Shown here: positions 2,588 to 18,049 of the stretch, piece by piece
How positions within the stretch are numbered: the first letter of the stretch is position 1
Layout of the letters: every line of letters starts with the position of its first letter
DNA from: Myxococcota bacterium
GTDB taxonomy: Bacteria > Myxococcota_A > SURF-8
Direction: 5' to 3'
Assembly (NCBI GenBank): GCA_963674735.2
Contig: CAXXQS010000002.1
Span: 640,001 to 704,000 of the forward strand
Length of the DNA stretch: 64,000 nt
Made by a program: the position numbers and the translations under genes
Notes under the pieces: model-generated
Told to the model about the DNA's origin: nothing
What the model saw: only the letters and a program-made list of their open reading frames with translations
Database searches by the model: none

Positions 2588-3130
2588 TCAAGGTCGGATG
2601 GACGCCTCCGCCTCATCACCGGGGGGCGCCGCCGGGACCGGTGCCTGGGCCGCGTCGGGATCGACGTTGAAGGCGTATTTCAAAATCCCCACCCGTCGCG
2701 CGCGGTCGATGAAATGGATGACGCGCCCATGGGAAACGGCCGTATCGGCCTGGATCACCATGGTCAGTTCGTTGCGCGCCATCAGCGTGAGTTGATTGTC
2801 GCTCACCGACCGCCCTTCCGCGTCGAGCCGCTGGGCTTTGTCGTGTTTGAACTCGTCGAGCAACTGCCGGAATTCCCCGTCGATGCCCTCCGCCTGCACG
2901 GCGCGTTCGCCGATCGCCACGGAACCGTCTTTTCCCAACAGCAGTGAAAACTGGTTGCGCTCCTTGGCCTCGCCCGTGTCGGCTTTGGGCAGCTCCATGT
3001 CGATGGCCGGTTTCACCATGAAGTTGGCCGTGACCATGAAGATGATGAGTAGTACCAAAACGATATCCACCAGCGGAACGACGTTGATGCCGGTGATGGC
3101 GTCGTCGTAATTGTCAACGGCGTGTGCCAT
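2588..3130 (-). CDS. exbD: ExbD/TolR-family biopolymer transport protein
   Basis: INVVPLVDIVLVLLIIFMVT transmembrane motif with the essential Asp, and C-terminal IQADTAVSHGRV. RBS AAGGAG. Confidence 0.9.
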   Translation of the reverse strand: MAHAVDNYDDAITGINVVPLVDIVLVLLIIFMVTANFMVKPAIDMELPKADTGEAKERNQFSLLLGKDGSVAIGERAVQAEGIDGEFRQLLDEFKHDKAQRLDAEGRSVSDNQLTLMARNELTMVIQADTAVSHGRVIHFIDRARRVGILKYAFNVDPDAAQAPVPAAPPGDEAEASIRP

Positions 3131-3140
3131 GATGATCTCC

Positions 3141-3797
3141 TTACGCGGCGAGCTTCGTCGGCGGTTCGCGGTTTTCGCCGGGTTCTTCGATGAAGGCCAG
3201 CAGCGTTTTTTCGAGCTGGGCGATGTTGCTCATGATCTGCTTCTGGCGGTTTTTGAAATAGTTGAAAAACACCACCGCCGGTATCGCCACCAAAAGCCCG
3301 ACGGCCGTCGCCACCAACGCCTCGGCGATGCCGCCCATCACCACGGACGGTCCGCCCTGCGCATTGAAAGCCAGATCGTGAAAGGCCTTGATGATGCCGA
3401 GCACCGTTCCCAAAAGACCGATGAACGGCGCATTCGAGCCGACCGTGCCCAGCACGATCAAGCCGCGATCGAGCTGCTGCTGCTCGCGCATCGTTTGGGA
3501 TTCCATCAGTTCGCGCACCACCGTCGCGCCCTTGTCGAAATTGGCCAGGCCCTCAGCCGCCACCCGCGATTCGGCGGTGGATTTTTCCTGGGCGCTCGCC
3601 AGCGCCTGCTCGCGCTCGCCCGCATTGAGGCGCGTGACCAGCTCGGCGCTGAAGGCTCCCGTATCGAGGCGATTTTTACGGTAGGTCCAAAACCGTTCGA
3701 CGACCACCGTCACGCTGATCAAACTGATCGCGATCATGAGATATAAAATCGGCTCGCCGCCGATGAGCGCCAGTTCCAACAGTCGATCCACCATCAT
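3141..3797 (-). CDS. exbB: MotA/TolQ/ExbB proton-channel protein
   Basis: APFIGLLGTVLGII...GIAEALVATAVGLLVAIPA signature. Start ATG at 3797 follows AAGGAG. Confidence 0.9.
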   Translation of the reverse strand: MMVDRLLELALIGGEPILYLMIAISLISVTVVVERFWTYRKNRLDTGAFSAELVTRLNAGEREQALASAQEKSTAESRVAAEGLANFDKGATVVRELMESQTMREQQQLDRGLIVLGTVGSNAPFIGLLGTVLGIIKAFHDLAFNAQGGPSVVMGGIAEALVATAVGLLVAIPAVVFFNYFKNRQKQIMSNIAQLEKTLLAFIEEPGENREPPTKLAA

Positions 3798-3857: not shown

Positions 3858-4082
3858 TTACAAGCATGAACACCGCGGCCTGAATAATCTGTTACCGGCA
3901 CGCGGCAGTTTTCGCAGCCCGTTCGGGCGGGCCGGTTTGCGACGCGGTCGCCAACTCGCCAGAACGATGAGCCCGAGAACCAGGGCGGCGATCAGCGCGA
4001 CCCCCGACACTATCGCCGCAAACAACCAGAGCAGCAGATCCGGTCCAAGAAATTCAAGCAGGGGTTCCATCCACGTCGGCAT
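3858..4082 (-). CDS. Small single-pass membrane protein (74 aa)
   Basis: Strong RBS AAGGAGG 5 nt before the ATG. Hydrophobic segment LLLWLFAAIVSGVALIAALVLGLIVLA, then a basic tail ending in CSCL. Confidence 0.55.
   Translation of the reverse strand: MPTWMEPLLEFLGPDLLLWLFAAIVSGVALIAALVLGLIVLASWRPRRKPARPNGLRKLPRAGNRLFRPRCSCL
3867..3896 (-). promoter_or_regulatory. Putative ECF promoter, copy A (before exbB-exbD)
   Basis: GGTAACAG-attattcaggccg(13)-CGGTGTTCA, about 70 nt before the exbB ATG. Confidence 0.75.
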
Positions 4083-4206
4083 GGGAGCCTCCTTTCCGGC
4101 GGGCTTGAGCTCGCGTTTCAGCGGCGGCGAATCCGGTTGGCGGTCGCCGTTCGTCTTGGTTTCAACAGCCCGCGAAACACAAAGGTCGTAAAACCAATAC
4201 AACTCT

Positions 4207-4240
4207 AAAAAAGGGGGGCCGCGGGACAAAGTCCCGCGGC
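4207..4240 (-). terminator. Intrinsic terminator after the beta-barrel gene
   Basis: The minus strand reads GCCGCGGGAC-ttt-GTCCCGCGGC, then CCCC and T6. Confidence 0.65.
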
Positions 4241-4259
4241 TAGGGAAGGACAGGAAGGT

Positions 4260-5201
4260 CTAGTTGAAGGTCGCGGAGAAGAGAAGCATCCCGCCGCCCT
4301 GGTGGACGGTCAGGTCATCGCTTTTGGCATAGCCGTAGGTGCCGCGCGCCGCCAGGCCCAGGCCCCAGTTGTCGCTCACCCACCACTCCTTGCCGACCGA
4401 AAGGCCCAGGCTCACGCCGGGCATCGTCTCATACTCGTGCTCACCGTCGTCGTACATATTGAGCACGGTGAGGCTGTGACCGACATCGGCGGACAGATAA
4501 ACGTTAACCGGCATGAAGTAATAGGTGAGGCCCAAGGAAAAGCTGAGGCTGGTGAAGTCACGCTGGTAATGATCATGATCTTCGAAGAGCGTACCCCAAA
4601 GCCAGAAGTCGCCGTGCAAAATCAGGTTTTCGGTCACCGCGCCGCCGAGGGACAACCCGAAGGCCGAGGTCGGGCCGCTTTCCTCGGGGTCTTTGACATC
4701 CGGGTGATACGTCGGCGCGTCGGTTGTGCCCGAAGCGTTGAACGTCCCGAAACCCAGCCCCGGCGTCAGACGCAGGAAAAAGCCGTCGTGGGTATGCACG
4801 CCCACCGGCTCTTCCTCCGGCTCCTCGCTGATCGTGGCATCTTCCTCGCTCGTGTCCTGAGAAACGTTGAGCTTGGCCATTTCGGCTTCCGCTTTGGCTT
4901 TTTCGGCTTCGGCCTGCGCTTTTTTAGCTTCCGCTTTGGCGATTTCGGCCTCTAAGCGCGCCTTTTCCACTTTCAACCGCAACGCCTCGGCCTCCGGGTC
5001 GGGAGAGGTGGGAGGCGGCGGCGAGACGGCGTCAGAGGACGTCGCCTCGACCGCGCCGAGGGTGGGTGCAACCAACTCCGGCCGAGTGTCGCCTTGCGGC
5101 TCGGCCCAGGCGGAGTGAGTGCCGAAAAGAAGTAGAAAGGCTAGAATAGCCTGAGAAGCCACTCGTTTATAGATCGCTGTCGATTGTGTTCGCGTGTTCA
5201 T
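4260..5201 (-). CDS. Exported protein: Pro linker, AEAEK coiled coil and small outer-membrane beta-barrel
   Basis: RBS GGAGG. Signal peptide ends SAWA-E. Alternating amphipathic strands run from HTHDGFFLRL to the C-terminal LLFSATFN. Confidence 0.75.
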   Translation of the reverse strand: MNTRTQSTAIYKRVASQAILAFLLLFGTHSAWAEPQGDTRPELVAPTLGAVEATSSDAVSPPPPTSPDPEAEALRLKVEKARLEAEIAKAEAKKAQAEAEKAKAEAEMAKLNVSQDTSEEDATISEEPEEEPVGVHTHDGFFLRLTPGLGFGTFNASGTTDAPTYHPDVKDPEESGPTSAFGLSLGGAVTENLILHGDFWLWGTLFEDHDHYQRDFTSLSFSLGLTYYFMPVNVYLSADVGHSLTVLNMYDDGEHEYETMPGVSLGLSVGKEWWVSDNWGLGLAARGTYGYAKSDDLTVHQGGGMLLFSATFN

Positions 5202-5236
5202 GCTCTCCTCCGTGGATGACGAGTCGGCCGCTGTGA

Positions 5237-5401
5237 TCAGCCGTCTTTCCGAGTCAGGATCTTGTCGATTTCGACCTGCTCGCGCCAATTCAAATAGACA
5301 CCACGTCCCATCCAACTCGCCGAAATCAACCCGACCATCGCCAACAAAGTCGACGTGGCATCGCCCGCCAGACTGGCTGTTTGGATGAGTTGTTCGAACA
5401 T
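5237..5401 (-). CDS. Small membrane protein (54 aa)
   Basis: Perfect RBS TAAGGAGG before ATG 5401. Sequence MFEQLIQTASLAGDATSTLLAMVGLISASWMGRGVYLNWREQVEIDKILTRKDG has one hydrophobic segment. It lies directly behind two promoter motifs. Confidence 0.7.
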   Translation of the reverse strand: MFEQLIQTASLAGDATSTLLAMVGLISASWMGRGVYLNWREQVEIDKILTRKDG

Positions 5402-5448
5402 GGCGTCCTCCTTATCGGTCGGCGATGTCGATCTCGCCTTGCATGCCG

Positions 5449-5478
5449 TAAACACCGCCGAGGAGAGAATGTGTCACT
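5449..5478 (-). promoter_or_regulatory. Putative ECF promoter, copy B
   Basis: AGTGACAC-attctctcctcgg(13)-CGGTGTTTA, 48 nt before ATG 5401. Confidence 0.7.
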
Positions 5479-5519
5479 CTTTTCATTTTTCATCGTGCCC
5501 ATGCACGCGGAAAGGAAGA

Positions 5520-5536
5520 AGCAAAGGACGTGCCAA
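5520..5536 (-). promoter_or_regulatory. Sigma-54 (-24/-12) promoter
   Basis: TTGGCACGtcctTTGCT matches the TGGCACG-N4-TTGCW consensus exactly. It is intergenic and correctly oriented. Confidence 0.7.
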
Positions 5537-5755
5537 CTTTGTCGTATTGTTTACAGCCCTACCTGGAGCGGCCTGGCAAACACCGAAGCGTTTGGAGCGC
5601 CGCCCGCAAAAGCACCATTCTGGGATAGAATTCTCGTGATGGTTTGAAATCACAGACAAAAACGGGATGACGCCAAAATGGTATAGCTCATTTTGACGCA
5701 ACGCTTGTCAAGTGGCGGGAATGGGTCTGACAGAAATGTCCGACTCAGACACCAG

Positions 5756-6505
5756 CTAGGCGTCCAACAGAAAGCGGTAGGGGATGACGATCTGCACCGG
5801 AACGGGAGTGTCGCCTTTGTAGCCGGGAACGAAACGCGATTGTTTGGCGGCCTTGACGGCGGCGCGGGCCAGTTGACGATGGGAAGCCTTGAGCACCTTG
5901 ATGCGCTTGACGCGACCGTCCACGCCGATCAGGACGCGCAGTTCCACGAAGCCTTCCTCGCCCTCGCGTCGCAGCTCGGGCGGATACAACGGTTCCACCT
6001 TGTATTTGAACGAGGGGGTGCGGGAGAGTTCGTAAAGCGGCACCGGCGCGGGCTGCCCCTTCGCTTTCGTGGCGGGCAGAGGCGCGACCGCTTCTACCGG
6101 CGTGGGCTTGGTTTCCATGGTCTTTTCAAGCGTGTTGCCGACCCGCACCGCGACCGTCCCCGTGCCCTCCGCCACCGATTCTTTCGTCACACCGAAAACC
6201 GGCGGCGGCGGCGGCGTGTCGGCCTTGGGTGGCGGCGTTTGACGATTGGCACGCGGCGGTCGGGTCGGAAGCTTGGGTTTCGGTTTGGGTTTGGGCGGCG
6301 CTTCCACCGGCTTGATTTCCGGCGGTGCGTCAGGCGGCGGCGGCGGCGCAATCAAGGTCACCCGACTCGGTCCCGGCGGCGGCGGTGCGGCGGCGGGCAC
6401 GTATTCACCGACCCACAGAAATCCGACATGCAGCCCCAGCGACACGATCAGCGGCAACCAGATAAACGAGCGCTTGGGAGACGTAACCGAGATGCGAATC
6501 ATCAC
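5756..6505 (-). CDS. tonB: Energy transducer TonB
   Basis: N-terminal transmembrane segment with S-x3-H (VSLGLH), Pro/Lys-rich linker, and TonB-C domain (YPPELRREGEEGFV...RFVPG...PV). RBS GGAGG; start GTG 6505 or ATG 6502. Confidence 0.9.
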   Translation of the reverse strand: MMIRISVTSPKRSFIWLPLIVSLGLHVGFLWVGEYVPAAAPPPPGPSRVTLIAPPPPPDAPPEIKPVEAPPKPKPKPKLPTRPPRANRQTPPPKADTPPPPPVFGVTKESVAEGTGTVAVRVGNTLEKTMETKPTPVEAVAPLPATKAKGQPAPVPLYELSRTPSFKYKVEPLYPPELRREGEEGFVELRVLIGVDGRVKRIKVLKASHRQLARAAVKAAKQSRFVPGYKGDTPVPVQIVIPYRFLLDA

Positions 6506-6562
6506 AAACCTCCGCCGATATCAAAGGCCGCCCGTCCCGCCGGGACAGGGCGCGTTAACGGA

Positions 6563-6592
6563 TGAACACCGCCGGGCCCGGAAACTGTCACC
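6563..6592 (-). promoter_or_regulatory. Putative ECF promoter, copy C (before tonB)
   Basis: GGTGACAG-tttccgggcccgg(13)-CGGTGTTCA, about 58 nt before the start. Confidence 0.75.
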
Positions 6593-6684
6593 GCTGCCGC
6601 AAACGAAAAATAAACCGATATGAAATCAATTAGATACAAAGAAACGAAATCGATCTCGCGCCCCCCGGATCTCTCAGAAAAGCG

Positions 6685-6713
6685 TTGAGTAAAAAACAAT
6701 ACCATGCTAGGAT
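6685..6713 (+). promoter_or_regulatory. Sigma-70-like promoter of the Cys-rich lipoprotein gene
   Basis: TTGAGT-N17-TAGGAT with an extended TG. Confidence 0.5.
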
Positions 6714-6789
6714 TCATCGATATTCGGAAGTAGGTTCCGGCTGAAAACGCCCCCTAAATCATGAGATTCGAGAAGTTGGCGAGGTAGTT

Positions 6790-9003
6790 ATGAAAAGCAT
6801 AGCGCATGGTGTAATACAGGTTCTGCTACTCGGCTGTTTGATCGGCCTGCTGGCCGCCTGTTCCGGAACGTCCACGACGACCGTCGACGGCGACACGCCC
6901 GTCTATCAACCGGACGGCGATAACGAATTGCCCGGCGATGGCGACGACCCCGATGGCGACGACCCCGACGGCGACGACCCCGACGGCGACGACCCCGACG
7001 GCGACGACCCCGACGGCGACGACCCCGACGGCGACGACCCCGACGGCGACGATCCGGACGGCGACAGCACGGACGGTGACAGCACGGACGGAGACAGCAC
7101 GGACGGAGACACCGACGGCGACACGGACGGCGACGATCCGTGGCACTGCGCCGTCGATACCGACTGCCCCTGGGGCTTTGCCTGCGTGGTGGACGGCGAA
7201 GGGGACGGCTGCGTATCGATGAACGAATGCGACGACGACGACGATTGCCTCACCGATTACGAGTGCACCGCAGTCGCCAACTGGAATATCTGCCGCCTGG
7301 CCGGGGATGAATGCTCGGAAGAGCTACCCTGCAGCTACGGCTTCGCCTGCTGGCCCACCGCCACCGGACGTTTCGTCTGCCAGAACGCCAACGAATGCGG
7401 AACCGACGCCGATTGCGAAACCAACGAAGTCTGCATCGACGGTCCCGATTGGAAAATCTGCGAAAGCGACGCCAACGACTGCTACCAGCACACCGACTGC
7501 AATTTCCACTTCGCCTGCAATACCGACAACGAGCCCAACCGCTGCGAATACGCCAGCACCTGCACGTCCAACGACGACTGCAGCTTCGGCAATGTCTGCC
7601 GCCAGGTGGAAAACTGGAAAGAGTGCAAACTGGGCCTCAACACCTGTTCCTCCGACGCCGATTGCCCGCCCGACGAATACTGCCAGGGCGTTGTCGGCAG
7701 CTTGGGCAGTTGCCAATCGCGCAACGAATGCGAGAGCGACGCCGACTGCGGTGCGCAGCAACGTTGCGTCAACAACGGTCTCTACACCGAATGCATCGAC
7801 GCCCCCACCTGCGCCGTCCACACCGACTGCGAATACGGGTATCGCTGCGAAAACAACATTTGCGAATACGCCAACGAATGCAACGTGGATGACGAGTGCG
7901 GTCCCAACGCGCGCTGCCTGCGCGACGGCGAAAACTGGAAAATCTGCGTGGGCATGAACACCGAATGTTCCGATCACAGCGATTGCCAGTTCGGCTACAT
8001 GTGCAATTCGGACGTCAACCCGGCCGTGTGCGCCTACGCCAGCACCTGCAGCTCGGACGAGGATTGCGGTTCCATGGAGGCCTGCGAGGTGGTCGAAAAC
8101 TGGAAGGAATGCAAATTCGACTGGTCCTTCGACTTCTGCGGATCCGACGCCGACTGCGAGCCGGATGAATTTTGCGAGAGCGTGCTCGGCAGCTACGGCA
8201 CCTGCAAATCGCTCAACGAATGCAGCGACGACACCGACTGCCCGGCCGACTACGTTTGCGAGAACAACGGCACCTACAACGAATGCGTCGAAGCCAACCC
8301 CTGCCAGCAGAACACCGATTGCGCCATCGGGTATCGCTGCGTGGTGTCCGATCCGCGCAACTACTGCGAATACGCCAACGAATGCGCCTCCGACGCCGAC
8401 TGCGAAGCCTGGCAGTCCTGCCAGGTGGAGGGCAACTGGACGGTCTGCAAGCTGGCCTGGAACAATCCCTGCACCTCCGACGACGGCTGCGCCGCCGATG
8501 AATGGTGCGACCTGACCGTCGGCCCCATCGGTATCTGTCGCTCGCGCGACCAGTGCATGGTGGACGGCGATTGCGGCGAGGGTCTGGTGTGCGAGGACAA
8601 CGGCACCTACAACGAGTGCGTCCCCGCCACCGAACAGAACTGCTGGTTCGACTTCCAGTGCCCGGAAAACTGGAACTGCGTCGATGGCCAATGCCAACCC
8701 ACTTACGCGGGTATGTGCGAGAATGTGGAAGGCCAGTGGACGGTCTGGTTCTCGTCGCCGACCTGCCTGCTCATCTCGGCCGGCACCGTGCTGGAGTTCA
8801 TGCCTGAGGACGGTTGCGACGGAGCGGTGAAAACCATCAACTCACCCATCGACCTGGGCACCTTCACCGAAACCTCCACCGGTCACTACGATGTCAGCTT
8901 CGGTTTCATCTACCAATGCACCGCCACCGTCACCCTGGGCACGCTGATGAGCATGGATTGCCCGGTCGGCTGCGGCGGCATCCAGTTGTCACGCGGCTTG
9001 TAA
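6790..9003 (+). CDS. Cys-rich repeat lipoprotein with DGDDP stalk
   Basis: Lipobox LAA-C, DGD repeats, many CxxDxDC...C modules, and a short beta-rich C-terminal domain. Confidence 0.85.
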   Translation: MKSIAHGVIQVLLLGCLIGLLAACSGTSTTTVDGDTPVYQPDGDNELPGDGDDPDGDDPDGDDPDGDDPDGDDPDGDDPDGDDPDGDDPDGDSTDGDSTDGDSTDGDTDGDTDGDDPWHCAVDTDCPWGFACVVDGEGDGCVSMNECDDDDDCLTDYECTAVANWNICRLAGDECSEELPCSYGFACWPTATGRFVCQNANECGTDADCETNEVCIDGPDWKICESDANDCYQHTDCNFHFACNTDNEPNRCEYASTCTSNDDCSFGNVCRQVENWKECKLGLNTCSSDADCPPDEYCQGVVGSLGSCQSRNECESDADCGAQQRCVNNGLYTECIDAPTCAVHTDCEYGYRCENNICEYANECNVDDECGPNARCLRDGENWKICVGMNTECSDHSDCQFGYMCNSDVNPAVCAYASTCSSDEDCGSMEACEVVENWKECKFDWSFDFCGSDADCEPDEFCESVLGSYGTCKSLNECSDDTDCPADYVCENNGTYNECVEANPCQQNTDCAIGYRCVVSDPRNYCEYANECASDADCEAWQSCQVEGNWTVCKLAWNNPCTSDDGCAADEWCDLTVGPIGICRSRDQCMVDGDCGEGLVCEDNGTYNECVPATEQNCWFDFQCPENWNCVDGQCQPTYAGMCENVEGQWTVWFSSPTCLLISAGTVLEFMPEDGCDGAVKTINSPIDLGTFTETSTGHYDVSFGFIYQCTATVTLGTLMSMDCPVGCGGIQLSRGL
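6937..7140 (+). repeat. 15-bp tandem repeat: DGDDP x8, then DGDST x3, DGDT x2, DGDDP
   Basis: ga(c/t)ggcgacgacccc-type units at 6937-7056, followed by variants. Confidence 0.95.
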
Positions 9004-9030
9004 ACCGCCGTTTTTTATCGGCAATCTCAC

Positions 9031-9056
9031 GGCCGCCCTTCGGGGCGGCTTTTTTT
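9031..9056 (+). terminator. Intrinsic terminator
   Basis: GGCCGCCC-ttcg-GGGCGGCT followed by T6. Confidence 0.8.
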
Positions 9057-9290
9057 GGGGGGAGAGAAACTCCGACTCGCGGCCAATGGACGGAGAGGCG
9101 ATCGAAACGGAATCGCTGAAAATCATCCTTCCACCGCTTTTCCTTCATTTCGATTGACGAAAGGTCGATTCGTTGGTAGAACGGCATCCAATGCGCACGA
9201 TCTGAGACCTGGCAGCGATTCGTTCAGCGAATGTAGCTTTTCAAGTGGAATTCCAAGACCAACGGTTTCCCGGGAGAAAAGGAGCAAACC

Positions 9291-10466
9291 TTGCAGGGGA
9301 TTAAAAACGGCATCAATTTCTTGTTGGAGAATAGCCTCTTCCTAATCGGCGGCACCATCGCGGCGTTGCTGATGGCCAACATGGATCACGAAAGCTATCA
9401 CCACATCATCCACGCCGAACTGTTCAAAGGCGTCAACTTCCACTTCCTTGTCAACGACGTCCTGATGTGCTTCTTCTTCGCGTTGGCGGCCAAGGAAATC
9501 TGGGAAGCCCTGCTCCCCGGCGGCGCGCTCAGCTCGCCCAAGAAAGCGGCCACCCCGCTGATCGCCACCGCAGGCGGCGTGATCGGACCGGCCTTGCTTT
9601 ACCTGGCGGGCGTCCACTTTTTTGAAGCCAGCGAACTCACGCGCGGCTGGGCCATCCCCTGCGCAACCGACATCGCCTTTTCTTACCTGGTGGCGCGCCT
9701 GGTGTTCGGCAAGGGACACCCGGCCATCCCCTTCCTGCTGCTGCTGGCCATCGCCGACGACGCAGCGGGCCTGATCATCCTGGCGGTGGCCTATCCCACC
9801 GGCGAAATGCACCTCGTAACGTTCTTCCTGGCCCTGGGCGGAGCCATCGCCTTCAACCTGCTGGTTCTGCGTAAGATGCTGAATATTCAGAACTTCTGGG
9901 CCTACTTACTGATCGCCGGACCGGTCGCGTGGTACGGGTTCCACGAGGGCGGCATTCATCCCGCCCTGGCGCTGGTACCCATCATTCCCACTCTACCGCA
10001 TGCCAAACATGACGACGGGCTGTTCGAAGGAACCCAAACCGATTATCCGCACGACCCGCTCAATGCCTTCGAACACTGGTGGAAAAATCCGGTGGAACTC
10101 ATCCTGATGCTGTTCGGATTCGCCAACGCGGGCGTGGCGCTTTCGGCCATGGGCCTCGGCACCTGGCTGGTCACCGGCGGTCTGCTGATCGGAAAACCGG
10201 TGGGTATCTTCCTGTGCACCCTCGTCGCCGTCAAACTGATGCGGCTTGAAATGCCTCAGGGCATGAACTTCCGCGATGTGGTGGTGCTCGGCTGCATGGC
10301 CGGTATCGGCTTTACCGTTGCGCTGTTTGTGGCCACCGTGGCCTTCCCGGCGGGCGATACCCTCGACGCGGCCAAGATGGGCGCCCTATTCTCCTTCGCC
10401 GCGGCCATCGTTTCCTTTGTCGTCGCCATCGTTTTGCGCGCCGGCCGATTCGCCCCCAAAGCCTGA
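9291..10466 (+). CDS. nhaA: Na+/H+ antiporter NhaA
   Basis: VNDVLM, GWAIPCATDIAF, LAIADD, GKPVG and GIGFT motifs. TTG start after AAGGAG. Confidence 0.92.
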   Translation: MQGIKNGINFLLENSLFLIGGTIAALLMANMDHESYHHIIHAELFKGVNFHFLVNDVLMCFFFALAAKEIWEALLPGGALSSPKKAATPLIATAGGVIGPALLYLAGVHFFEASELTRGWAIPCATDIAFSYLVARLVFGKGHPAIPFLLLLAIADDAAGLIILAVAYPTGEMHLVTFFLALGGAIAFNLLVLRKMLNIQNFWAYLLIAGPVAWYGFHEGGIHPALALVPIIPTLPHAKHDDGLFEGTQTDYPHDPLNAFEHWWKNPVELILMLFGFANAGVALSAMGLGTWLVTGGLLIGKPVGIFLCTLVAVKLMRLEMPQGMNFRDVVVLGCMAGIGFTVALFVATVAFPAGDTLDAAKMGALFSFAAAIVSFVVAIVLRAGRFAPKA

Positions 10467-10474
10467 CTCTCGTC

Positions 10475-10518
10475 ACGGCGACGGACCCTCCCATGGGTCT
10501 GTCGCCGTTTGTTTTTTC
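10475..10518 (+). terminator. Intrinsic terminator after nhaA
   Basis: ACGGCGACGGACCC...GGGTCTGTCGCCGT stem followed by a T-tract. Confidence 0.7.
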
Positions 10519-10596
10519 CCGACTATTGAAGAGCGATGAAATACATGTTACCCTTTCTCCATCTAGGAGTTCGACGTTTCGGCTATCACAAGCCCG

Positions 10597-11817
10597 TTGC
10601 TCGACGAGACTGTCTCGGCGAGCATCACGCCTGAGGGGATCGGCTATCGACGTATGATCGCAACACGGATTACACCGCTACGCAGCGAGAGCGACTGGCA
10701 GGACTGTCGGGAGCGCCTGCAGGCCTTCGAAAAGCTCTGCGCCCCCGATTGTTTCATGAGCTGGGCCTACCAGCACGCCGTCTGGAAGCTGGTGGCTCCC
10801 GAAAAAACCTGCTGGCTCATGGAAGTCGGTGCCCACGGCGAACCCTTGGCGACCGCCCTCTGGGCCGAAGCCACCACCACCCGCTGGCTCACCAATTTTC
10901 GCATTCTGCGCAGCCTGGATTACAACGTGATGCAGATGGCCCCCATGATGCTGCGGGCCGGACGCGAGCGGGAAGCCTGCCACGCCCTGGTGGACGCCCT
11001 GCCCAAACTGGCCAACGCCAGCCAGACCAATCTGGTGCGCCTGTACAAAATCAATGCCGAAAGCGCCCAGCCGCTCATCGAGGCCTTGAAAACGCACGAT
11101 GTACCCCACCAGGTACGCCCCTTCAACCGCTCCCATCGCATCCTCCTGACCGACGATCTCAACGAGTATTTCGCCCAGAAATCCAAGAAATCGGTGCGCA
11201 ACATCCGACGGCTGGGCAAGAATCTCGAAAAAGACCTGGGCGGCGAACTCAACCTGCAGCGTCATCGCGGCGCTTTCTGCGAACGGCCCGACTTCGAAAC
11301 CGACCTGCAAAAATTCGAAGATCTGCGCTGCCGTTCCTGGCAACTCTCCCAAAGCGGCGGAAACGGTCACGTCCATGGGAAAGACGTCATGGCTTTTTAC
11401 CGTGAAGCCTGCGAAGACTGGAAACAGAAAGGATGGCTGGATTTGATCGTGATGCAGGCCGGAGAAACGCCCGTAGCCGGACAGCTCAACGTCATCATCG
11501 ATCAGACTCAATGGGTGGTGCTCACCGCCTACGACCAGAAACTGGCGCGCTACTCCCCCGGACGCGTGATGTTTTATCGCCAACTGTTCGACAGCTTCGT
11601 CATGGGCGACCGCCTGGTGGACTTCGGCGGCGAGAACGAAGATTGGAAACAGTACTGGTCTAACGACACGCAGGACACCCTGCAGATTTCCTGGGCCATG
11701 CGCGGGCTTAAAAGCGCGGTCTGGTCGTTGGCGCAAAAACTCTTGCGCTCGGGCGACGGCAAAATGCCGCTTCCCATCGTCAACCGCAACTCCATCAAAG
11801 GAAACGAAACAGGTTGA
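10597..11817 (+). CDS. CelD/BcsL-like GNAT acetyltransferase
   Basis: C-terminal YDQKLARYSPGRVM...VDFGG..EDWKQYW pattern of Acetyltransf_6 proteins. The true start may be ATG 10654. Confidence 0.75.
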   Translation: MLDETVSASITPEGIGYRRMIATRITPLRSESDWQDCRERLQAFEKLCAPDCFMSWAYQHAVWKLVAPEKTCWLMEVGAHGEPLATALWAEATTTRWLTNFRILRSLDYNVMQMAPMMLRAGREREACHALVDALPKLANASQTNLVRLYKINAESAQPLIEALKTHDVPHQVRPFNRSHRILLTDDLNEYFAQKSKKSVRNIRRLGKNLEKDLGGELNLQRHRGAFCERPDFETDLQKFEDLRCRSWQLSQSGGNGHVHGKDVMAFYREACEDWKQKGWLDLIVMQAGETPVAGQLNVIIDQTQWVVLTAYDQKLARYSPGRVMFYRQLFDSFVMGDRLVDFGGENEDWKQYWSNDTQDTLQISWAMRGLKSAVWSLAQKLLRSGDGKMPLPIVNRNSIKGNETG

Positions 11818-11978
11818 CACAACACAAAAATTCCCGGTCGATTCGCCCCCAAAGCCGACCCGACATAACCCCCCTGAACTACTTACTAATTGCTGCAGCC
11901 TTTCATTATTTTCTTGTCAATCGGACACCCAACACTGTATGCTGGGTGTATTCAGAAACCACAGGATTATAATGCCCT

Positions 11979-13553
11979 TTGGCTGGGAGGCTCCCGATTA
12001 CCAAGCGCCCCAATCATCCCGATTCGAGTCCGCAAGAAACCGCTGTTTTGCAGCGACAGATAGATGATTTGCGCCGACGTCTGGCCCAACACGAGCCGGT
12101 CGAAGGAGCCTTGCGTATTTTTCGCAATCTCTACGAAGCCATGACGGAAGGCGTGGCCTTGCATGAAGTGGTGGTCGACGCCGACAGAAAACCGATAGAC
12201 TACCGCATCATGGAGGTGAATCCCGCCTACGAATCCATCATCGGCATCCGCCGCGATGAAGCACGCGGCAAACTGGCTTCCGAGCTATACGGCACCAGCT
12301 CGCCGCCTTACCTCAAAGAATACAGCCATGTGGCCTTCTCCGGGGTGCCGGTCTCATTCGACACCTATTTTCCCCCCATGGACAAACATTTCACGATCAA
12401 GGTGTTTTCGCACCATCCCGGTCATTTCGCCACCGTATTCGAAGATATTACCAGCCGCAAACAAGCCGAAGAAAAGATCCGAAAGAGCGAAGAGCTGTTT
12501 CGCACCATTGCTGAAAAAGCGGTGGATTCGATCTTTACCAAAGATCTCGACCGGCGCTATACCTTCGTCAACCCCGCCATGGCGCAGGTCTTCGGCGTGG
12601 ACGGAGCGACGCTGATCGGCAAGACCCCAGGTGAACTCTTCGACGCAGAAACGGCCGCCATCATCGACGAAGTGGACATCGCAACGCTTGAGGGGCATGT
12701 CGTCGATGAAATCCGACGCTTGAGTCTGGGTGACGAATCGCGCGACTTCCATACCGTCCAGGTTCCCTTGAAACACAACGGCGGTGACGTTTACGGCATG
12801 TTGGGATTCGTACGCGATGTGACCGAGAAAAAACGGCGGGAAACGGAATTGCGGCACCAGCAAAAACTGGAAGCCCTGGGAACTCTCGCCGGAGGGGTCG
12901 CCCACGAGATCAACAATCCCATCAACATCATCGCCAATTATGCCGAACTGATTCAAAGCCGGGTTTCCCCGGACGACACAATCGCCGATTATTCACAGGA
13001 AATCCTGTCTGAAAGCGACCGGATCGCCAAAATCGTCGCAAACCTGCTGGCTTTCGCACGCCAGGATATCGAGGAACCGGCTCCGGCAATCATGCCCGAA
13101 ATCATCGAAACCACCTTGTCGCTGACCGGGAAAATCCTCACCCAACACCACATTGAACTCAAGCTCGAACTGCCCGCGGATCTCCCCTCGATCACCTGCC
13201 GCCGCCAACAGATCATGCAGGTTCTGCTCAATTTGTTGACCAACGCCAAAGACGCGCTCAATGATAAGTATCCCCAGTATAATGAAGATAAGATCATCCA
13301 CATCAGTTGCAAAGTCGTGCAGCGCGGAAACGCTCGCTGGCTGCGCTGCATCGTGAAGGACCACGGCACCGGAATTCCGGCGGATCAGATCGAAAAGGTG
13401 TTCGATCCTTTCTACACAACCAAAGCCCCTCACAAGGGGACGGGACTGGGCCTCGCCATCAGCCACAACATCATTACGGAGCACGGCGGCGAGTTACGAA
13501 TTGAAAGTCGGCCGGGGAGCTATACCCGATTCATCATCAATCTCCCCGTCTGA
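11979..13553 (+). CDS. Cytoplasmic PAS-PAS sensor histidine kinase
   Basis: Two PAS/PAC units, H-box GVAHEINNP, N-box NLLTNAKDA, and DHGTG / FYTTK / GTGLGL boxes. Start uncertain. Confidence 0.92.
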   Translation: MAGRLPITKRPNHPDSSPQETAVLQRQIDDLRRRLAQHEPVEGALRIFRNLYEAMTEGVALHEVVVDADRKPIDYRIMEVNPAYESIIGIRRDEARGKLASELYGTSSPPYLKEYSHVAFSGVPVSFDTYFPPMDKHFTIKVFSHHPGHFATVFEDITSRKQAEEKIRKSEELFRTIAEKAVDSIFTKDLDRRYTFVNPAMAQVFGVDGATLIGKTPGELFDAETAAIIDEVDIATLEGHVVDEIRRLSLGDESRDFHTVQVPLKHNGGDVYGMLGFVRDVTEKKRRETELRHQQKLEALGTLAGGVAHEINNPINIIANYAELIQSRVSPDDTIADYSQEILSESDRIAKIVANLLAFARQDIEEPAPAIMPEIIETTLSLTGKILTQHHIELKLELPADLPSITCRRQQIMQVLLNLLTNAKDALNDKYPQYNEDKIIHISCKVVQRGNARWLRCIVKDHGTGIPADQIEKVFDPFYTTKAPHKGTGLGLAISHNIITEHGGELRIESRPGSYTRFIINLPV

Positions 13554-13589
13554 AAATGATTGCAACCTCTCAATCGAGAAGAGAAAACA

Positions 13590-13982
13590 ATGGCTAACAT
13601 TCTGATTATCGATGATGAACTCGGTATCAGGAAAACTCTCGGCCTTTTTCTCGAAATACGCGGACATCGAACCTACTTGGCCGAGGACGTCCGCACCGGA
13701 CTCTCCACCCTGGCCGCTCAGCACGTCGACGCGGTGATTTGCGATGTGCTGCTACCGAACCGCTCCGGCCTGGAATTTCTGGAAGAAGTTCGAAAGTCGC
13801 AACCCACCCTGCCGGTCATCATGATCAGCGGCGAACCGACCCGGCGTGTCAAGCAAATCGCTAAAAACCTGAACGCCTACGACTTCCTGGCCAAACCCAT
13901 CCACAGCGACACGATCTGCAAATTGGTCGATCAAGCACTGGGGAGCGTGCGAACGACATCGCACTCCAAACCCGAATTCTAG
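13590..13982 (+). CDS. Single-domain response regulator
   Basis: ILIIDD...VICDVLLP...ISG...LAKP receiver motifs, directly after the kinase. Confidence 0.88.
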   Translation: MANILIIDDELGIRKTLGLFLEIRGHRTYLAEDVRTGLSTLAAQHVDAVICDVLLPNRSGLEFLEEVRKSQPTLPVIMISGEPTRRVKQIAKNLNAYDFLAKPIHSDTICKLVDQALGSVRTTSHSKPEF

Positions 13983-14030
13983 TCGGACATCGGCGAGCAC
14001 GGATCGGACAGAGCCCAGACAAACCGCAAC

Positions 14031-16373
14031 CTAGATCTCCACACCCAGGATAAAGCCGGGACCGAGACGGACGACATCTTTGTCACTTTTCTCGTAAATC
14101 TTCCAGTGGGGCAGATAGCTGACCTGATCGATGGGGATCGCGTTGTCGCTTTGCTCGTGGATCAGCGATAAGGTGGGACCGAAGATGATGGAGCGACGCT
14201 CGTCCCATTTCCAGCCGAACACAAAACGCAGCTTGTCGATGTAGGTCCAGCTTTTGGTGTCGCCCATATCCATCTGGCTCCACAGCAGGGTATCGATATC
14301 GAGGAACCAGCTTTCAGTCAGCGGGATATGCCCGCCGATGCCCCAGCCGAACGAAACCGAGCGGGTGTCGAACAGCGGTTGCAGACCGAGCGCGAACAGG
14401 TTGTAGACGTATTTGCTGCCGTGTTTGAACGCGGCGTTGACCAGGGCCGTGTCACTGGTCCAGAATTGCCCGTGCACCTGTCCATTGGGCACGATGCTTA
14501 AAAATCCGATGGGCGCGTCCACATCCTCGGCATAGTTGATGAAACCCAATTGCGCCCCACGCAGACGGCCGACGTTGACGTTGAGAAAGCCCATCTGGGC
14601 TCCGGCGGACGGTTCGCGCCCGGTAGTTATATTCACATAGCCCGCCTGCAAACCGGTGAAGGAACCGGTGGTCACGGAAGCCAGGCTGTATTGCAGGCCG
14701 GTCGCATCCCCGGCGACCACCGAAGCCAGGGCCAGTTGCGCCCCGATGAAATCCCCATAGGTAACATTGGCCAACGAAAACTGCGCACCGGTGACGTTGC
14801 CGACGGTCACGTTGGCCAGCGAGAGCTGCGCACCACGCACGTGGTCGATGGTGACGTTGGTCAAGGCGAGCTGCGCGCCGGTGACATTCCCGACCGCGAT
14901 ATCCACCAGGGCCAATTGCGCACCGGTGAAGTTACCGCCGGTGTAATCCACCAGGCCGTATTGCGCCCCCATGAAATGGCGGCTGTTGTGGTTGTAAATA
15001 CCGGCGAGTTGCAGGCCTTTGCTATCGCGCTGGGCGACGTTGACGATCCCCGCCACCGATACGCCCAAGGCATCGCGCTGGGTGACATTGACGATACTGG
15101 TCAATTGCAAACCCGCCATGTCGTCGTTTTGCCAGTTCAAAAACCCGGCCAAACCGAAACCGCGCAACTTGTCCTGTTCGTTGGCGAACAAGCCAAGAGA
15201 AACGTTGTTTTCGATCGGGCCTTCGTCTTCGTAAGCTTTGTTGATGTCGGCGGGCGGAAAGAATCCGATGTTGAACGGCACGCTTTTATATTTTTTACCC
15301 TCGTCGCCCCGCCCGCGCGCCACGGTCGACTCGGCGCTGATGCTGGTGAAATCGTTGAGCGCCAGCATATAAGGCCGATTCATTTCCAGGTTGAATTCCG
15401 CGATCGAATAGGCGCCGTCGCGTTCGAGCACCATGCGGTAGTTGCCGGGTTCGATCCCCAGTTCCATCGGCCGCCCGGCGCTTTTGCCCACCTCCGCCAC
15501 CAGACGCATGTTGGCATCGCGCAGATACAAACGCCCCGCCACTCCGCCTTCGACCAGCAAACTGGCGGTGTTTTCGCGCAGTTCGGTCAACACCAGTTCG
15601 CCGGTTCCCGAAAGCTGGATATCGTAGCTCGGATGCTGAGCGCCGCTCTGGGTGGTTTCGGTGCGCCCCAGAGTTTCGTTGAAGGCATACTGATAGGCCT
15701 CGTTGAGCGTCACGCGCCGATCGCCGGTGACGTCCGCCGCCCCGCGCAGCCCCGAAACCAGGTAATGGGTGAAGAAGGAACCCTCGATACGGTCGGATTC
15801 CTGGGCCGCTTCATCGGCGGAGGCCGACGTTAAAAAGGCGTGTCCTTCCAGCGAGATGGAAGCATCGGACAGAAAAGGCGGACGCGTTACGCCGCCCTTG
15901 CTGCGCGTCATGGCCCCGGACGAACAGGAATCGAGTACGATCACACGCACGGCGGCGGGCAAGGCCTCCACCCGCTTGCGCAGATCCTGGTAACGCACGC
16001 TGCGGCCATAGAGCAACAGGCCCTCTTCGTCGGAATGTCCCGAATAATAGACGAACACTTCCTGCCGCTCATCGGCGCGTCGCGTGGCGCGCATGCGCGT
16101 TTCAAGCTCCTGCAGGCCACTGAAAAACTCGTTGCGGTCGGGATCGATCAGCAGCACGCGGTCTTTGGGGGAGATGCCGCCCAGATCTTCGAGCACGTTG
16201 GCCACCGCCTGGGCATCGTCATCGGCGTAGCGCAGCAAAATGCGCCGCCCGCCGCCGTCGTTGGCACCGACGATGAAGGCGAAACGCCGTACCGACGACT
16301 CTTCCGCCGCATGCAACGATCCCGCCGCCGACAGGGTCAGCAGCAGGAGTAGTCCGGTTAATGCCCAGCGCAT
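14031..16373 (-). CDS. Exported caspase-family (C14) protease with GAQL-repeat solenoid and C-terminal beta-strand domain
   Basis: Signal peptide MRWALTGLLLLLTLSAAGSLHA. Catalytic dyad motifs YYSGHS and VLDSCSSG. About 15-aa repeats G(A/L)Q(L/F)xLxN(V/I). C-terminal amphipathic strands end GFILGVEI. Confidence 0.88.
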   Translation of the reverse strand: MRWALTGLLLLLTLSAAGSLHAAEESSVRRFAFIVGANDGGGRRILLRYADDDAQAVANVLEDLGGISPKDRVLLIDPDRNEFFSGLQELETRMRATRRADERQEVFVYYSGHSDEEGLLLYGRSVRYQDLRKRVEALPAAVRVIVLDSCSSGAMTRSKGGVTRPPFLSDASISLEGHAFLTSASADEAAQESDRIEGSFFTHYLVSGLRGAADVTGDRRVTLNEAYQYAFNETLGRTETTQSGAQHPSYDIQLSGTGELVLTELRENTASLLVEGGVAGRLYLRDANMRLVAEVGKSAGRPMELGIEPGNYRMVLERDGAYSIAEFNLEMNRPYMLALNDFTSISAESTVARGRGDEGKKYKSVPFNIGFFPPADINKAYEDEGPIENNVSLGLFANEQDKLRGFGLAGFLNWQNDDMAGLQLTSIVNVTQRDALGVSVAGIVNVAQRDSKGLQLAGIYNHNSRHFMGAQYGLVDYTGGNFTGAQLALVDIAVGNVTGAQLALTNVTIDHVRGAQLSLANVTVGNVTGAQFSLANVTYGDFIGAQLALASVVAGDATGLQYSLASVTTGSFTGLQAGYVNITTGREPSAGAQMGFLNVNVGRLRGAQLGFINYAEDVDAPIGFLSIVPNGQVHGQFWTSDTALVNAAFKHGSKYVYNLFALGLQPLFDTRSVSFGWGIGGHIPLTESWFLDIDTLLWSQMDMGDTKSWTYIDKLRFVFGWKWDERRSIIFGPTLSLIHEQSDNAIPIDQVSYLPHWKIYEKSDKDVVRLGPGFILGVEI
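14530..15170 (-). repeat. Degenerate ~45-bp coding repeats (G-A-Q-L-x-L-x-N-V; LA_2272/VC2662-like)
   Basis: Units such as TGAQLALVDIAVGNV / TGAQLALTNVTIDHV / RGAQLSLANVTVGNV. Confidence 0.8.
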
Positions 16374-16402
16374 GATCCCACACTCTCCATGATGCTCGTC
16401 CG

Positions 16403-17185
16403 TCAAGGTTTGGGCAAGGTCAGCGACCAGCTCGCCAGTCCGTCCGGCAGAGCAAGCGCGCCATTGTGCATCCGGACGGATTGGCGTGTCAGCGCCTGCG
16501 CAGCGTTCAAAACATCCTGAACGGCAAAAGGCTGCTCGGAGGTCACGAAAAAGAAGCGTTCGAAATCGGGAGCGTCGTCCAATTCATAGGCGAAATCGAG
16601 TAGTTGCGCACCTTGCGCATTGAGCTCGACCGCCTGTTTACCTCGCGCCGGATAGTGGCGTGTCACCGTCCCGTTTCCATCCAGCGACACGATCACGCCG
16701 AAGCGTCCGGCCCCGGCGACATACGAAAGTTGCAACACATCCCCGGCGCGCACGAGAGTCGCCTCGTTCAATTGTTCGTTTCCGGCGGCCAGCTTGCGAA
16801 AGATCACCAAATGCGCTTCGAGCCCCTTGGTATAAATGATTTCACCCGAATCCCCGCCGTTGGGTCCACCCAGATAGGGATAGCTGATAAACAACGCCGC
16901 CACGACGACGACCACGGAGGCCAGCGAGGCGGCCCAAGTAAAGGAAAATCTCTGAGATTGACGGCCTTTTTCGTGCCGTCCGGCCCGCCGCGCAATCTTG
17001 TCGGCCATTTTGGCGGGCGGATGCGTAAAGAGAATGTCGCGGTTGGAGGCTTCGAGCGCCTGCAAGCGCGCCTGCAACTCGGGATCCTGTTCGAGGGCGA
17101 CCCGGATCACCTCGGCGCGCTCGGGCGGACAATCGCCCTGAAGGTATTGTTCCAGCCACCAGTCGCTGATCGGTTTCGCATTCAT
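16403..17185 (-). CDS. Putative membrane anti-sigma factor (ActD-like / DUF4384-type periplasmic domain)
   Basis: Overlaps the sigma stop codon (ATGA). N-terminal LEQYLQGD anti-sigma-like helix, one transmembrane segment, then IYTKG...GDVLQLSY...AYELDDAPDFERFFFV. Confidence 0.75.
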   Translation of the reverse strand: MNAKPISDWWLEQYLQGDCPPERAEVIRVALEQDPELQARLQALEASNRDILFTHPPAKMADKIARRAGRHEKGRQSQRFSFTWAASLASVVVVVAALFISYPYLGGPNGGDSGEIIYTKGLEAHLVIFRKLAAGNEQLNEATLVRAGDVLQLSYVAGAGRFGVIVSLDGNGTVTRHYPARGKQAVELNAQGAQLLDFAYELDDAPDFERFFFVTSEQPFAVQDVLNAAQALTRQSVRMHNGALALPDGLASWSLTLPKP

Positions 17186-17667
17186 GCTATCACCCCCTCC
17201 AGCTCTTTGAGCGAGCGGGTCAATTTGCGCAACCGTTTGCGCACACCCGAGACCGACAGGCCCACCTGTTCGGCGGTCTCCTCCAAGGTGAAACCGTCGA
17301 GCAGATGCAGCACCGCCATGGTTTGCGACGACGCAGGTTCGTCCTTGAACAGCCGTTTGAGCACCGAGCGGGCACTGTTGCGGCTTTCGTCGTCTCCGGC
17401 CTGGGCGATACGCGCCAACAGGTCGTCGTCGCCATCTTCCGGGCGGCGCTTGCGCGAACGGATGCGGTTGAGGCTCTCATTGGTGGCGATAGTCAGCAAT
17501 AAACTCGTGGGGTTGCGGTCGTCGAGTTGTTCTTGCCGTTGAATCAATTTCACGAACACATCCTGCATCACGTCCAGTGCCTCCTCTTCATTCTTGAGCA
17601 GGTAGCGGCAGCGCCTGAGAACCATGGGGCCGTATTTTCTGTAAAAAGCTTCTACGTCGATCGCCAA
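17182..17667 (-). CDS. ECF RNA polymerase sigma factor
   Basis: Region 2 (YGPMVLRRC...ALDVMQDVF) and region 4 (DGFTLEETAEQVGLSVSGVRKRL). TTG start at 17667 after GGAGG; the ORF-track extension to 17814 is probably not translated. Confidence 0.9.
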   Translation of the reverse strand: MAIDVEAFYRKYGPMVLRRCRYLLKNEEEALDVMQDVFVKLIQRQEQLDDRNPTSLLLTIATNESLNRIRSRKRRPEDGDDDLLARIAQAGDDESRNSARSVLKRLFKDEPASSQTMAVLHLLDGFTLEETAEQVGLSVSGVRKRLRKLTRSLKELEGVIA

Positions 17668-17691
17668 GGCCCTGCCTCCGCTTCCAGAAAG

Positions 17692-17721
17692 TGAACACCG
17701 GATATGCGCGTATCTGTCACC
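17692..17721 (-). promoter_or_regulatory. Putative autoregulatory ECF promoter, copy D
   Basis: GGTGACAG-atacgcgcatatc(13)-CGGTGTTCA, 25 nt before the sigma start. Confidence 0.78.
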
Positions 17722-18049
17722 CGCCCGAGAGACCCGACCCGATACAAACTCGACCCTCTCCGTGACGGTGTGGGGTAGTTTACCGAAAAAACGATGGAAA
17801 GTGTACTTTTCCACTTAATTTTGCGACCGCTAACAAATAGTTAACCATTTAGACGCAAGGAGCGTCCACGGAGCCGAATCGCCGAATGGCTTACCATTCC
17901 GATATTTGAGACGATTGACGCGCTGAAATTCCACAAAAAAACGGCCCACCGAAAAATGTGGACCGTTGGGAGAGTAAAGACGAGACGACTGGAAAGCGGT
18001 TTGTTGATGCCATATTCCCGCTTGTTTCCCCAGCTTGGATCGTGGCCGC

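Follow-up and report, generated by a model that had tools for sequence, protein, structure and literature searches.

A conserved bipartite motif as the probable promoter of an extracytoplasmic function sigma/anti-sigma/caspase operon and of a dedicated TonB-ExbB-ExbD gene set in a Myxococcota bacterium

Sigma factors of extracytoplasmic function (ECF) make up the largest family among the alternative sigma factors, and for most of their groups no signal or regulon is known. RpoE-RseA and SigW-RsiW are autoregulated ECF pairs of group 4 of the sigma-70 proteins. Regulated proteolysis of the anti-sigma factor is the usual route of release, and the E. coli sigmaE regulon contains rseP. Other described systems share different parts with the locus reported here. 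In FecI-FecR-FecA, according to the abstracts of two papers, an ECF sigma factor, a membrane anti-sigma factor and TonB-ExbBD act in one pathway, and the anti-sigma factor is cut by a proteolytic cascade (PMC12772443, PMC12036975). ECF54, in the excerpted description, occurs with CHAT-domain proteins and has no anti-sigma factor (PMC8999054), and EACC2-caspase systems coupled to ECF sigma factors are presented, in the part of the source consulted, as conflict systems that counter invaders (PMC8195603); activation by proteolysis has been proposed for such couplings (PMC8999054, PMC8195603). This report concerns 64,000 nucleotides of the genome of a Myxococcota bacterium (assembly GCA_963674735.2, contig CAXXQS010000002.1, positions 640,001 to 704,000), hereafter the window, in which four copies of one bipartite motif precede an operon for an ECF sigma factor, an anti-sigma factor and a caspase-like protein, the tonB gene, the exbB-exbD genes and a beta-barrel gene. 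The sequences make it very probable that the motif is the cognate promoter of this sigma factor, whose conserved regulon would include one dedicated set of TonB-ExbBD.

A literature search on ECF sigma factors with caspase, peptidase C14, a TonB/exbB regulon or the box sequences found no description of such a module, although the per-group supplements of PMC7826278 may bear on its novelty. The main text of that 2021 ECF reclassification does not mention caspase, peptidase, C14, CHAT, DUF4384, DUF3379 or GTGACA; its supplementary group descriptions may list the group (PMC7826278).

The initial annotation had placed four motif copies on the minus strand. When the window was scanned with the pattern GTRACAS-N13-CGGTGTTYA, tolerating up to one mismatch, exactly four sites were returned, all at the positions given for them, on the minus strand and without mismatch, the matched stretches being 3867-3895, 5449-5477, 6563-6591 and 17692-17720; the statement that the window holds no further full copy thus also stands. 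As located by the scan and by reading of the sequence, the copy at 17692..17721 (GGTGACAG-N13-CGGTGTTCA) precedes the sigma gene and would be its autoregulatory promoter. Further copies precede tonB (6563..6592), a 54-aa open reading frame (ORF) followed by the barrel gene (5449..5478) and exbB (3867..3896; GGTAACAG-N13-CGGTGTTCA). Zero matches to the same pattern were found in 100 dinucleotide-preserving shuffles of the window. The two boxes can be read as the -35 element, of the AAC/GAC type, and the -10 element of a promoter, with a constant distance between them.

The 3' ends of the copies lie 24, 47, 60 and 69 nt from the likely start codons, close to the 25-70 nt first estimated: the TTG of the sigma gene at 17667, preceded by GGAGG; the ATG of the 54-aa ORF at 5401, preceded by AAGGAGG; the ATG of tonB at 6502; and the ATG of exbB at 3797, preceded by AAGGAG. 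The boxes of the four sites are 76-100% identical to one another, whereas flanks and spacers are 15-54% identical, and the sites are therefore not copies of a repeat element. Outside the boxes they resemble each other no more than random sequence does, in agreement with the view that they did not arise by simple duplication. The exbB copy sits within the 3' end of a weak 123-aa ORF (3858-4229).

The genome under study (G000) is a 5.26-Mb assembly of three contigs (C1-C3), the window being C2:640001-704000. Genome-wide, GT[AG]ACA-N14-CGGTGTT has 10 matches. With spacers of N10-N13 and N15-N19 the counts were 0, 0, 2, 1, 0, 1, 0, 2 and 0, and the pattern read backwards gave none in this genome. 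All 10 exact sites are sense-oriented and lie 5' of ORF starts, at 25-176 nt from mechanically listed starts, so that the few matches are not scattered at random in position and orientation. When sites were placed with a crude gene caller based on codon usage, eight of the 10, including all six outside the window, were intergenic and at most 250 nt 5' of a same-strand gene, a class that makes up 4.1% of 20,000 random positions. The two sites outside this class are that of the sigma gene, whose longest ORF over-extends 5', and that of exbB, in the weak 123-aa ORF.

Position weight matrices (PWMs) gave a similar picture. A matrix built from the four window sites with the spacer masked found nine sites of at least 20 bits in G000 versus one or two per shuffle in five shuffles. 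At 14 bits the real count equalled the shuffle count, so only the top of that list is real. With a second matrix, a site of 22.5 bits precedes a methyltransferase gene and one of 19.7 bits precedes the gene for MlaC; both are of the intergenic class and neither was a training site. The matrix background in G000 is low, with 20 of 10.5 million positions reaching 15 bits, 10 of them training sites. A match of 19.3 bits to the four-site matrix at C3:163050 was rejected as a likely chance match that apparently lies within a long opposite-strand ORF (L008:215-2125, 636 aa), and matches at C1:354365, C1:2258466 and C1:186378, inside crude gene calls, were excluded from the regulon. Chance, or descent from a dispersed repeat of which only remnants are left, is hardly credible as the origin of the four copies given the empty shuffles, the excess at a single spacing, the unrelated flanks and the retention of the motif, with different spacers, in other phyla.

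The initial annotation had suggested looking for the motif before orthologous ECF genes. With the caspase protein as query, 52 loci were retrieved from public genomes labelled Deltaproteobacteria, Myxococcota, Bdellovibrionales, Gammaproteobacteria, Fibrobacteria, Chitinispirillia, Spirochaetes, Acidobacteriota and Aminicenantes, some of the bin labels being clearly unreliable. The order sigma, anti-sigma, caspase is found in 47 of the 52, four of the other five end at a contig edge, and the three genes mostly abut or overlap. Among the 51 loci with sufficient DNA upstream of sigma, the best PWM score within 150 nt 5' of the sigma start was at least 8 bits in 45 and at least 15 bits in 34. By comparison, control windows on the same strand inside the operons reached 8 bits in 0 of 203 cases, with a maximum of 3.8. 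The motif is thus present before orthologous ECF genes in many phyla, at a median of 27 nt from the sigma start codon as compared with 24 nt in the window; at the level of sequence, the ECF gene has its own putative bipartite promoter element. Column counts gave the consensus RGTRACA(C/G)wTT-N10-cGGTGTTyA.

Variants were seen among these operons. In L086, L088, L098, L100, L101, L104 and L106, GGTGTC replaces GGTGTT in the downstream box 5' of sigma, and these loci may serve to seek co-variation of sigma region 2 with the -10 element. In one genome (G019) the sigma and anti-sigma genes are apart and a second full motif lies between them (copies at L039:1501-1527 and 2167-2193; G019:C43), so that anti-sigma and caspase may have an internal promoter of their own.

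The motif also tracks the ECF sigma factor among genomes, as would be expected of its promoter. Exact matches were counted in 41 genomes of the phylum, a sigma ortholog being defined by E <=1e-50. All nine genomes with a sigma ortholog have at least two matches (10, 2, 3, 5, 3, 2, 2, 2 and 2), and the orthologs outside G000 have 59-68% identity. Of the 32 genomes without one, 28 have no match, three have one match and one (G013) has three. The latter genome has a caspase ortholog, and its sigma factor fell under the E threshold. One of its three matches is near the caspase locus; the others, one 5' of a parA-like gene and one without a clear downstream ORF, are probably due to chance. The reversed pattern yielded three matches in total in the 41 genomes, and the pattern itself had no exact match in four genomes (86-95% complete) that belong to the same order and lack the operon.

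It was considered that the motif may be read by a different factor, another sigma factor or a DNA-binding regulator, with the ECF operon as just another target. The boxes are faintly inverted alike (GTGACA ... TGTTCA), as in an operator. However, all 10 sites have the same orientation to the downstream gene, for which a symmetric operator has no need, and in 45 of 51 operons, from many phyla, the motif keeps its place close to the start of sigma; it also follows the presence of the sigma gene in the 41 genomes. Moreover, the only other tblastn match to the sigma factor in G000 has 31% identity, and there is therefore no close paralog to claim the motif. Reading by another factor is accordingly judged improbable. 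Position, co-occurrence and the lack of a close paralog together support the claim made at the outset, that the motif is the promoter of this ECF sigma factor.

The second part of the preferred reading concerns the TonB motor. A PWM match was found 5' of the tonB orthologs of four relatives (G001, 17.1; G008, 18.2; G009, 15.2; and G006, 15.7 bits) and 5' of exbB-exbD in G001 (18.5), G006 (15.3), G005 (22.0) and, with two copies each, G008 (28.6 and 26.1) and the distant G043 (31.0 and 26.9). The motif spacers before the tonB and exbB orthologs differ in each relative. The barrel ortholog of G008 also has a motif, of 20.2 bits. On a single contig of G001, a stretch of 10 kb holds the operon, exbBD and tonB, whereas in G008, again on one contig, the operon is at about 0.95 Mb, exbB at about 0.42 Mb and tonB at about 2.06 Mb, with the motif at all three. 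Since the gene arrangement differs, the motif goes with the genes and not with the neighbourhood.

The motif is specific to one paralog set. G000 has at least two further TonB-like matches, six further ExbB-like matches and nine TonB-dependent receptors. The closest second set in this genome (ExbB 66% and TonB 54% identical) has no motif, its best score being below 0. Likewise, the second ExbB/TonB sets of G001, G005 and G008 have none, and the best PWM score for second sets across G000, G001, G005 and G008 was at most 2.0. The initial annotation had assigned the whole TonB-ExbB-ExbD motor to the regulon; the assignment is borne out by the motif before the tonB and exbB orthologs of relatives, and it concerns one dedicated paralogous set among several. 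In a tree of ExbB proteins, the four from this order whose genes have the motif group together in one clade (support 85/93), and relatives without the ECF sigma factor (G002, G003 and G004) have the motif-less ExbB type alone. Several branches of this tree are long or poorly supported, and its evidence for paralog specificity is suggestive rather than firm. Across the order, the conserved core would comprise the sigma operon, the dedicated TonB/ExbBD paralog set and outer-membrane proteins.

The two motif copies 5' of exbB are in tandem in G008 (L062, minus, 1056-1436; about 350 nt apart) and in G043 (L074, minus, 6889-7089; about 170 nt apart). In G008, the end of a small ORF that encodes a hydrophobic segment falls inside the second copy. 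The same applies in the window, where the doubtful 74/123-aa ORF (3858-4082) ends inside the exbB motif; the small ORFs cannot be aligned with each other.

A sigma factor, an anti-sigma factor and a TonB set together raise the possibility of ordinary cell-surface signalling of the FecI/FecR type for iron or nutrients, with the TonB set energizing a classical transducer. FecI-type ECF sigma factors do act with TonB, as the abstracts of PMC12772443 and PMC12036975 describe, and G000 has the nine receptor matches. However, none of the nine TonB_dep_Rec matches lies within the window (C2:640001-704000), and the conserved third gene of the operon encodes a caspase-like protein, not a receptor. At E <=0.01 the only Pfam match of the anti-sigma factor is the weak DUF3379, with no FecR family. 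Furthermore, the genes preceded by the motif encode small barrels, lipoproteins and secreted proteins, and other TonB copies that are near receptors (C1:262797-265580, C2:422719-429310) lack the motif. Such signalling is very improbable for this locus. As judged from its genes, with an anti-sigma factor outside the FecR family and no transducer in the window, the system is not a FecI/FecR/FecA unit.

The Pfam matches of the encoded proteins agree with the identities first assigned to them, namely ECF sigma factor, Peptidase_C14, TonB_C, MotA_ExbB and ExbD. The sigma factor (17182..17667, minus strand, 161 aa) probably starts at the TTG at 17667, the longest ORF reaching 17814; its orthologs are mostly 158-162 aa long and the alignment begins at residue 1. 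It matches Sigma70_r2 (E 5e-15, 55.5 bits, cut-off 24), Sigma70_r4_2 at 23.4 bits, slightly under the cut-off of 25.7, and the NCBIfam model TIGR02937 (sigma70-ECF) at 72.2 bits versus a cut-off of 42.9. With sigma-2 and sigma-4 domains only, it has the domain composition of an ECF (group 4) sigma-70 factor. No specific NCBIfam sigma model matched it at cut-off. Among solved structures, no relative was found for the sigma factor at E <=1e-5 or for the anti-sigma profile at E <=0.1.

The predicted single-pass anti-sigma factor (16403..17185, minus strand, 260 aa) was assigned from hydropathy, a weak family match and alignment. The start of its gene overlaps the sigma stop by 4 nt. Hydropathy shows one hydrophobic segment, beginning at residues 79-90. 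The N-terminal 100 residues weakly match an anti-sigmaE model (E 6e-5, 22.8 bits versus a cut-off of 225), and the DUF3379 match has an E of 0.005. The periplasmic domain is well conserved in an alignment of 39 sequences.

The third gene (14031..16406, minus strand; start at 16373 or 16406) encodes a secreted caspase-like protein of 791 aa with a signal peptide, a Peptidase_C14 domain (PF00656, 42.6 bits, cut-off 21.4) and LA_2272-type repeats. His113 and Cys150 of the caspase domain are invariant in 33 of 33 sequences, and a caspase fold with this predicted His-Cys dyad places the protein in Peptidase C14. It also matches the NCBIfam model 'caspase, EACC1-associated type' below threshold (68 bits versus a cut-off of 140). 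The predicted model (mean pLDDT 82.5) consists of a caspase fold, a beta-sandwich, a long beta-solenoid and C-terminal long strands. In Foldseek searches the caspase fold resembled caspase-7, -6 and -3 (TM-score by target 0.52-0.59; best E 4e-3, caspase-7) and the barrel-like C-terminal part resembled porin or OmpA transmembrane domains (E 9e-3 to 7e-2); no match to the model was obtained at E 0.001. Because these matches are weak, an outer-membrane anchor formed by the C-terminal barrel-like domain is something we infer from the model.

The tonB gene (5756..6502, minus strand) encodes an N-terminal anchor, a Pro-rich linker and a TonB_C domain (Pfam E 1.5e-17), and exbB (3141..3797, minus strand; MotA_ExbB, E 6e-36) is followed by exbD (2588..3130, minus strand; ExbD, E 7e-25). 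The TonB_C, MotA_ExbB and ExbD scores of 64.2, 123.4 and 88 bits are each above cut-off. The barrel gene (4260..5201, minus strand) is predicted to encode an outer-membrane protein with a signal peptide, a long helix at residues 69-115 and an eight-stranded beta-barrel. The model, built on an alignment of just three sequences, has eight long strands at residues 141-312 with a block-mean pLDDT mostly of 75-95, in line with the original naming of the gene, and resembles Ail, OmpX, NspA and the OmpA transmembrane domain (E 3e-10 to 1e-6). The Pfam OMP_b-brl score is under cut-off (20.6 versus 28.7).

Four units can be recognized: tonB by itself, the barrel gene together with the 54-aa ORF, exbB-exbD, and sigma with anti-sigma and caspase. 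The barrel gene is divided from the exbB unit by a strong terminator-like hairpin (4218..4240, minus strand) with a 10-bp stem of nine GC pairs, followed by CCCCCTTTTT. A second one was predicted 3' of exbD (2526..2545, minus strand), and a third, with a 10-bp stem of six GC pairs and a T-run after it, lies 5' of the ECF promoter (17940..17967, minus strand), where it would shield the sigma operon from upstream transcription. These hairpins fit the claim of separately promoted units; 3' of tonB no terminator was predicted. The 54-aa ORF (5237..5401, minus strand) has a good ribosome-binding site, and its status as a real gene is uncertain. When the 54-aa and 123/74-aa ORFs were compared by tblastn with all fetched loci, nothing better than E 0.09 was obtained, and the idea that they are conserved genes is unsupported.

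Other genes of the window were noted. Divergent from tonB, a plus-strand gene (6790-9003) has a product of 737 aa that matches the cysteine-rich domain Dickkopf_N (E 3.9e-12), a mainly animal domain, and DUF7107. Between the motif-bearing clusters, 9291-13553 (plus strand) encodes an NhaA-type antiporter, an Acetyltransf_6 (GNAT) protein and a PAS histidine kinase, and has no motif. Upstream of the ECF operon, 18867-20852 (minus strand) encodes a 661-aa WD40 protein.

The regulon proposed in the initial annotation comprised the four window promoters. These stand, and the predicted regulon is larger, with at least 10 promoters. Of the six sites outside the window, one lies before the gene for a PlsC-type acyltransferase and another before that for an MMPL/HpnN-like exporter. 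A third precedes the gene for a secreted protein of 484 aa, and a fourth a 99-aa ORF with HlyD and AcrB genes after it. The remaining two stand before an LPP20 lipoprotein gene, after which a 1482-aa Ig-repeat protein is encoded, and before the gene for a 311-aa secreted protein with no family match. The 484-aa protein (G000:C2:779392-780846; L003:4393-5847; minus strand) lacks the protease domain and is paralogous to the caspase protein over residues 370-791 of the latter, at 43-47% identity. Its own motif copy lies 50 nt upstream of the gene and is kept in G006 (exact) and in G009 (one mismatch).

The exporter gene overlaps dxr, which overlaps rseP (G000:C2:324298-329848; L002), with the motif copy in front of the three. 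RseP is a Peptidase_M50 site-2 protease with four PDZ stretches, and the sigma factor may thus induce the protease that usually finishes anti-sigma degradation. The promoter of this cluster was not conserved in G003, G004, G006, G007, G008 or G009. Neither this promoter nor the PlsC site was kept in any relative compared, with or without the ECF sigma factor, and the idea of a sigmaE-like envelope-stress regulon that is conserved in relatives was rejected. The envelope-stress reading therefore has its basis in G000 alone.

Several observations weigh against the proposed promoter and regulon. The assignment of the motif to the sigma factor is drawn from position and co-occurrence in the sequences, and the related genomes are not independent, so that the counts overstate significance. 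In six of the 51 orthologous operons, no match within the 150 nt reaches 8 bits; L074, among the six, has a site of 32 bits 177 nt upstream of sigma. No motif stands before the G001 barrel ortholog, where 450 nt gave a best score of -3.5, only two barrel orthologs having been found. In G015, G019 and G033 the second motif copy is 5' of lipoprotein genes or the anti-sigma gene, not exbB, and the link to TonB appears to be lineage-limited, to this order, G043 and, by operon adjacency, L079. Additionally, the MMPL-Dxr-RseP and PlsC promoters are kept in no relative examined (six and six loci; best score at most 4.6 bits). The sigma/promoter pair would thus be old and widespread, with peripheral targets that turn over fast.

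A mechanism can be proposed from the statistics, geometry and conservation of the motif, its co-occurrence with the sigma factor and its specificity for one paralog set, all of which are plain from the sequences. The sigma factor would be held inactive by the co-translated single-pass anti-sigma factor. Once released, it would bring RNA polymerase to its own operon of sigma, anti-sigma and caspase-like protein, in positive autoregulation. It would also drive the three separately terminated units 11-14 kb off (tonB; the small ORF and barrel gene; exbB-exbD) and at least six more promoters elsewhere in the genome, with weaker sites at the methyltransferase and MlaC genes. We infer that transcription starts at these sites, that the motif is read by this sigma factor rather than by another factor and that the inducing signal is some envelope disturbance. 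Release would presumably occur by regulated proteolysis of the anti-sigma factor, in which the caspase-like protein may act first and RseP last. The conserved, periplasm-facing caspase-like protein is the obvious candidate for the first cut, a role held with much less confidence than the promoter assignment, and the parts that the caspase protein and TonB might play in signalling are likewise far more tentative.

A bolder proposal is that the proteins of the conserved core form one envelope-spanning machine, made up of the sigma/anti-sigma pair, the periplasmic caspase with its outer-membrane anchor, the solenoid/barrel paralog without a protease domain, the eight-stranded barrel with its periplasmic helix and the dedicated TonB-ExbB-ExbD set, in which TonB would pull on the small-barrel or solenoid proteins and the caspase would act as site-1 protease on the periplasmic domain of the anti-sigma factor. 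This is doubtful. If it were true, it would amount to a TonB-powered, caspase-triggered ECF pathway, found in many phyla, that induces its own motor by feed-forward, with no 22-stranded receptor being fed.

The analysis provides a sequence-derived and well-controlled model of the promoter and regulon of a sigma/anti-sigma/caspase module that is translationally coupled and conserved across many phylum labels. A TonB-ExbB-ExbD paralog set as a conserved predicted transcriptional target, reached through three promoters, is unusual. It is also unusual that, in the relatives compared, the motif-bearing ExbB clade occurs only in genomes with the sigma factor, and that the protease encoded by the third operon gene is caspase-like and is predicted to be suspended from the outer membrane on its periplasmic side. 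On further study the locus would offer a tractable case for roles of the TonB motor beyond classical receptors and for the substrates of bacterial periplasmic caspases, and the motif and sigma factor are a candidate orthogonal promoter/sigma pair.

In many respects the system resembles the autoregulated ECF sigma/anti-sigma pairs. It has a two-domain sigma factor of about 160 aa with a co-translated, predicted single-pass anti-sigma factor; its putative promoter is directly upstream and combines an AAC/GAC-type -35 box, next to which T-rich sequence follows, with a spacer of fixed length; and its predicted regulon is one of envelope proteins, including, in G000, the site-2 protease RseP. However, the boxes, GTRACA and cGGTGTT, differ from the RpoE consensus, and, unlike in the classical pairs, the third gene encodes a caspase-like protein predicted for the outer membrane, and tonB and exbBD make up the conserved core of putative targets. 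The locus shares with ECF54, as far as the excerpt describes it, the genetic coupling of a caspase-superfamily protease to an ECF sigma factor, but a conserved predicted anti-sigma factor is present here, whereas ECF54, by its description, has none. It differs from the EACC2-caspase systems, in the portion of their description consulted, in that the caspase has a signal peptide, an LA_2272 solenoid and a barrel-like C-terminus and that the targets are those of the envelope. Finally, the association of an ECF sigma factor, a membrane anti-sigma factor and TonB-ExbBD is common to FecI-FecR-FecA and to this system; the difference is that TonB and ExbBD are here putative transcriptional targets of the sigma factor, by way of three promoters.

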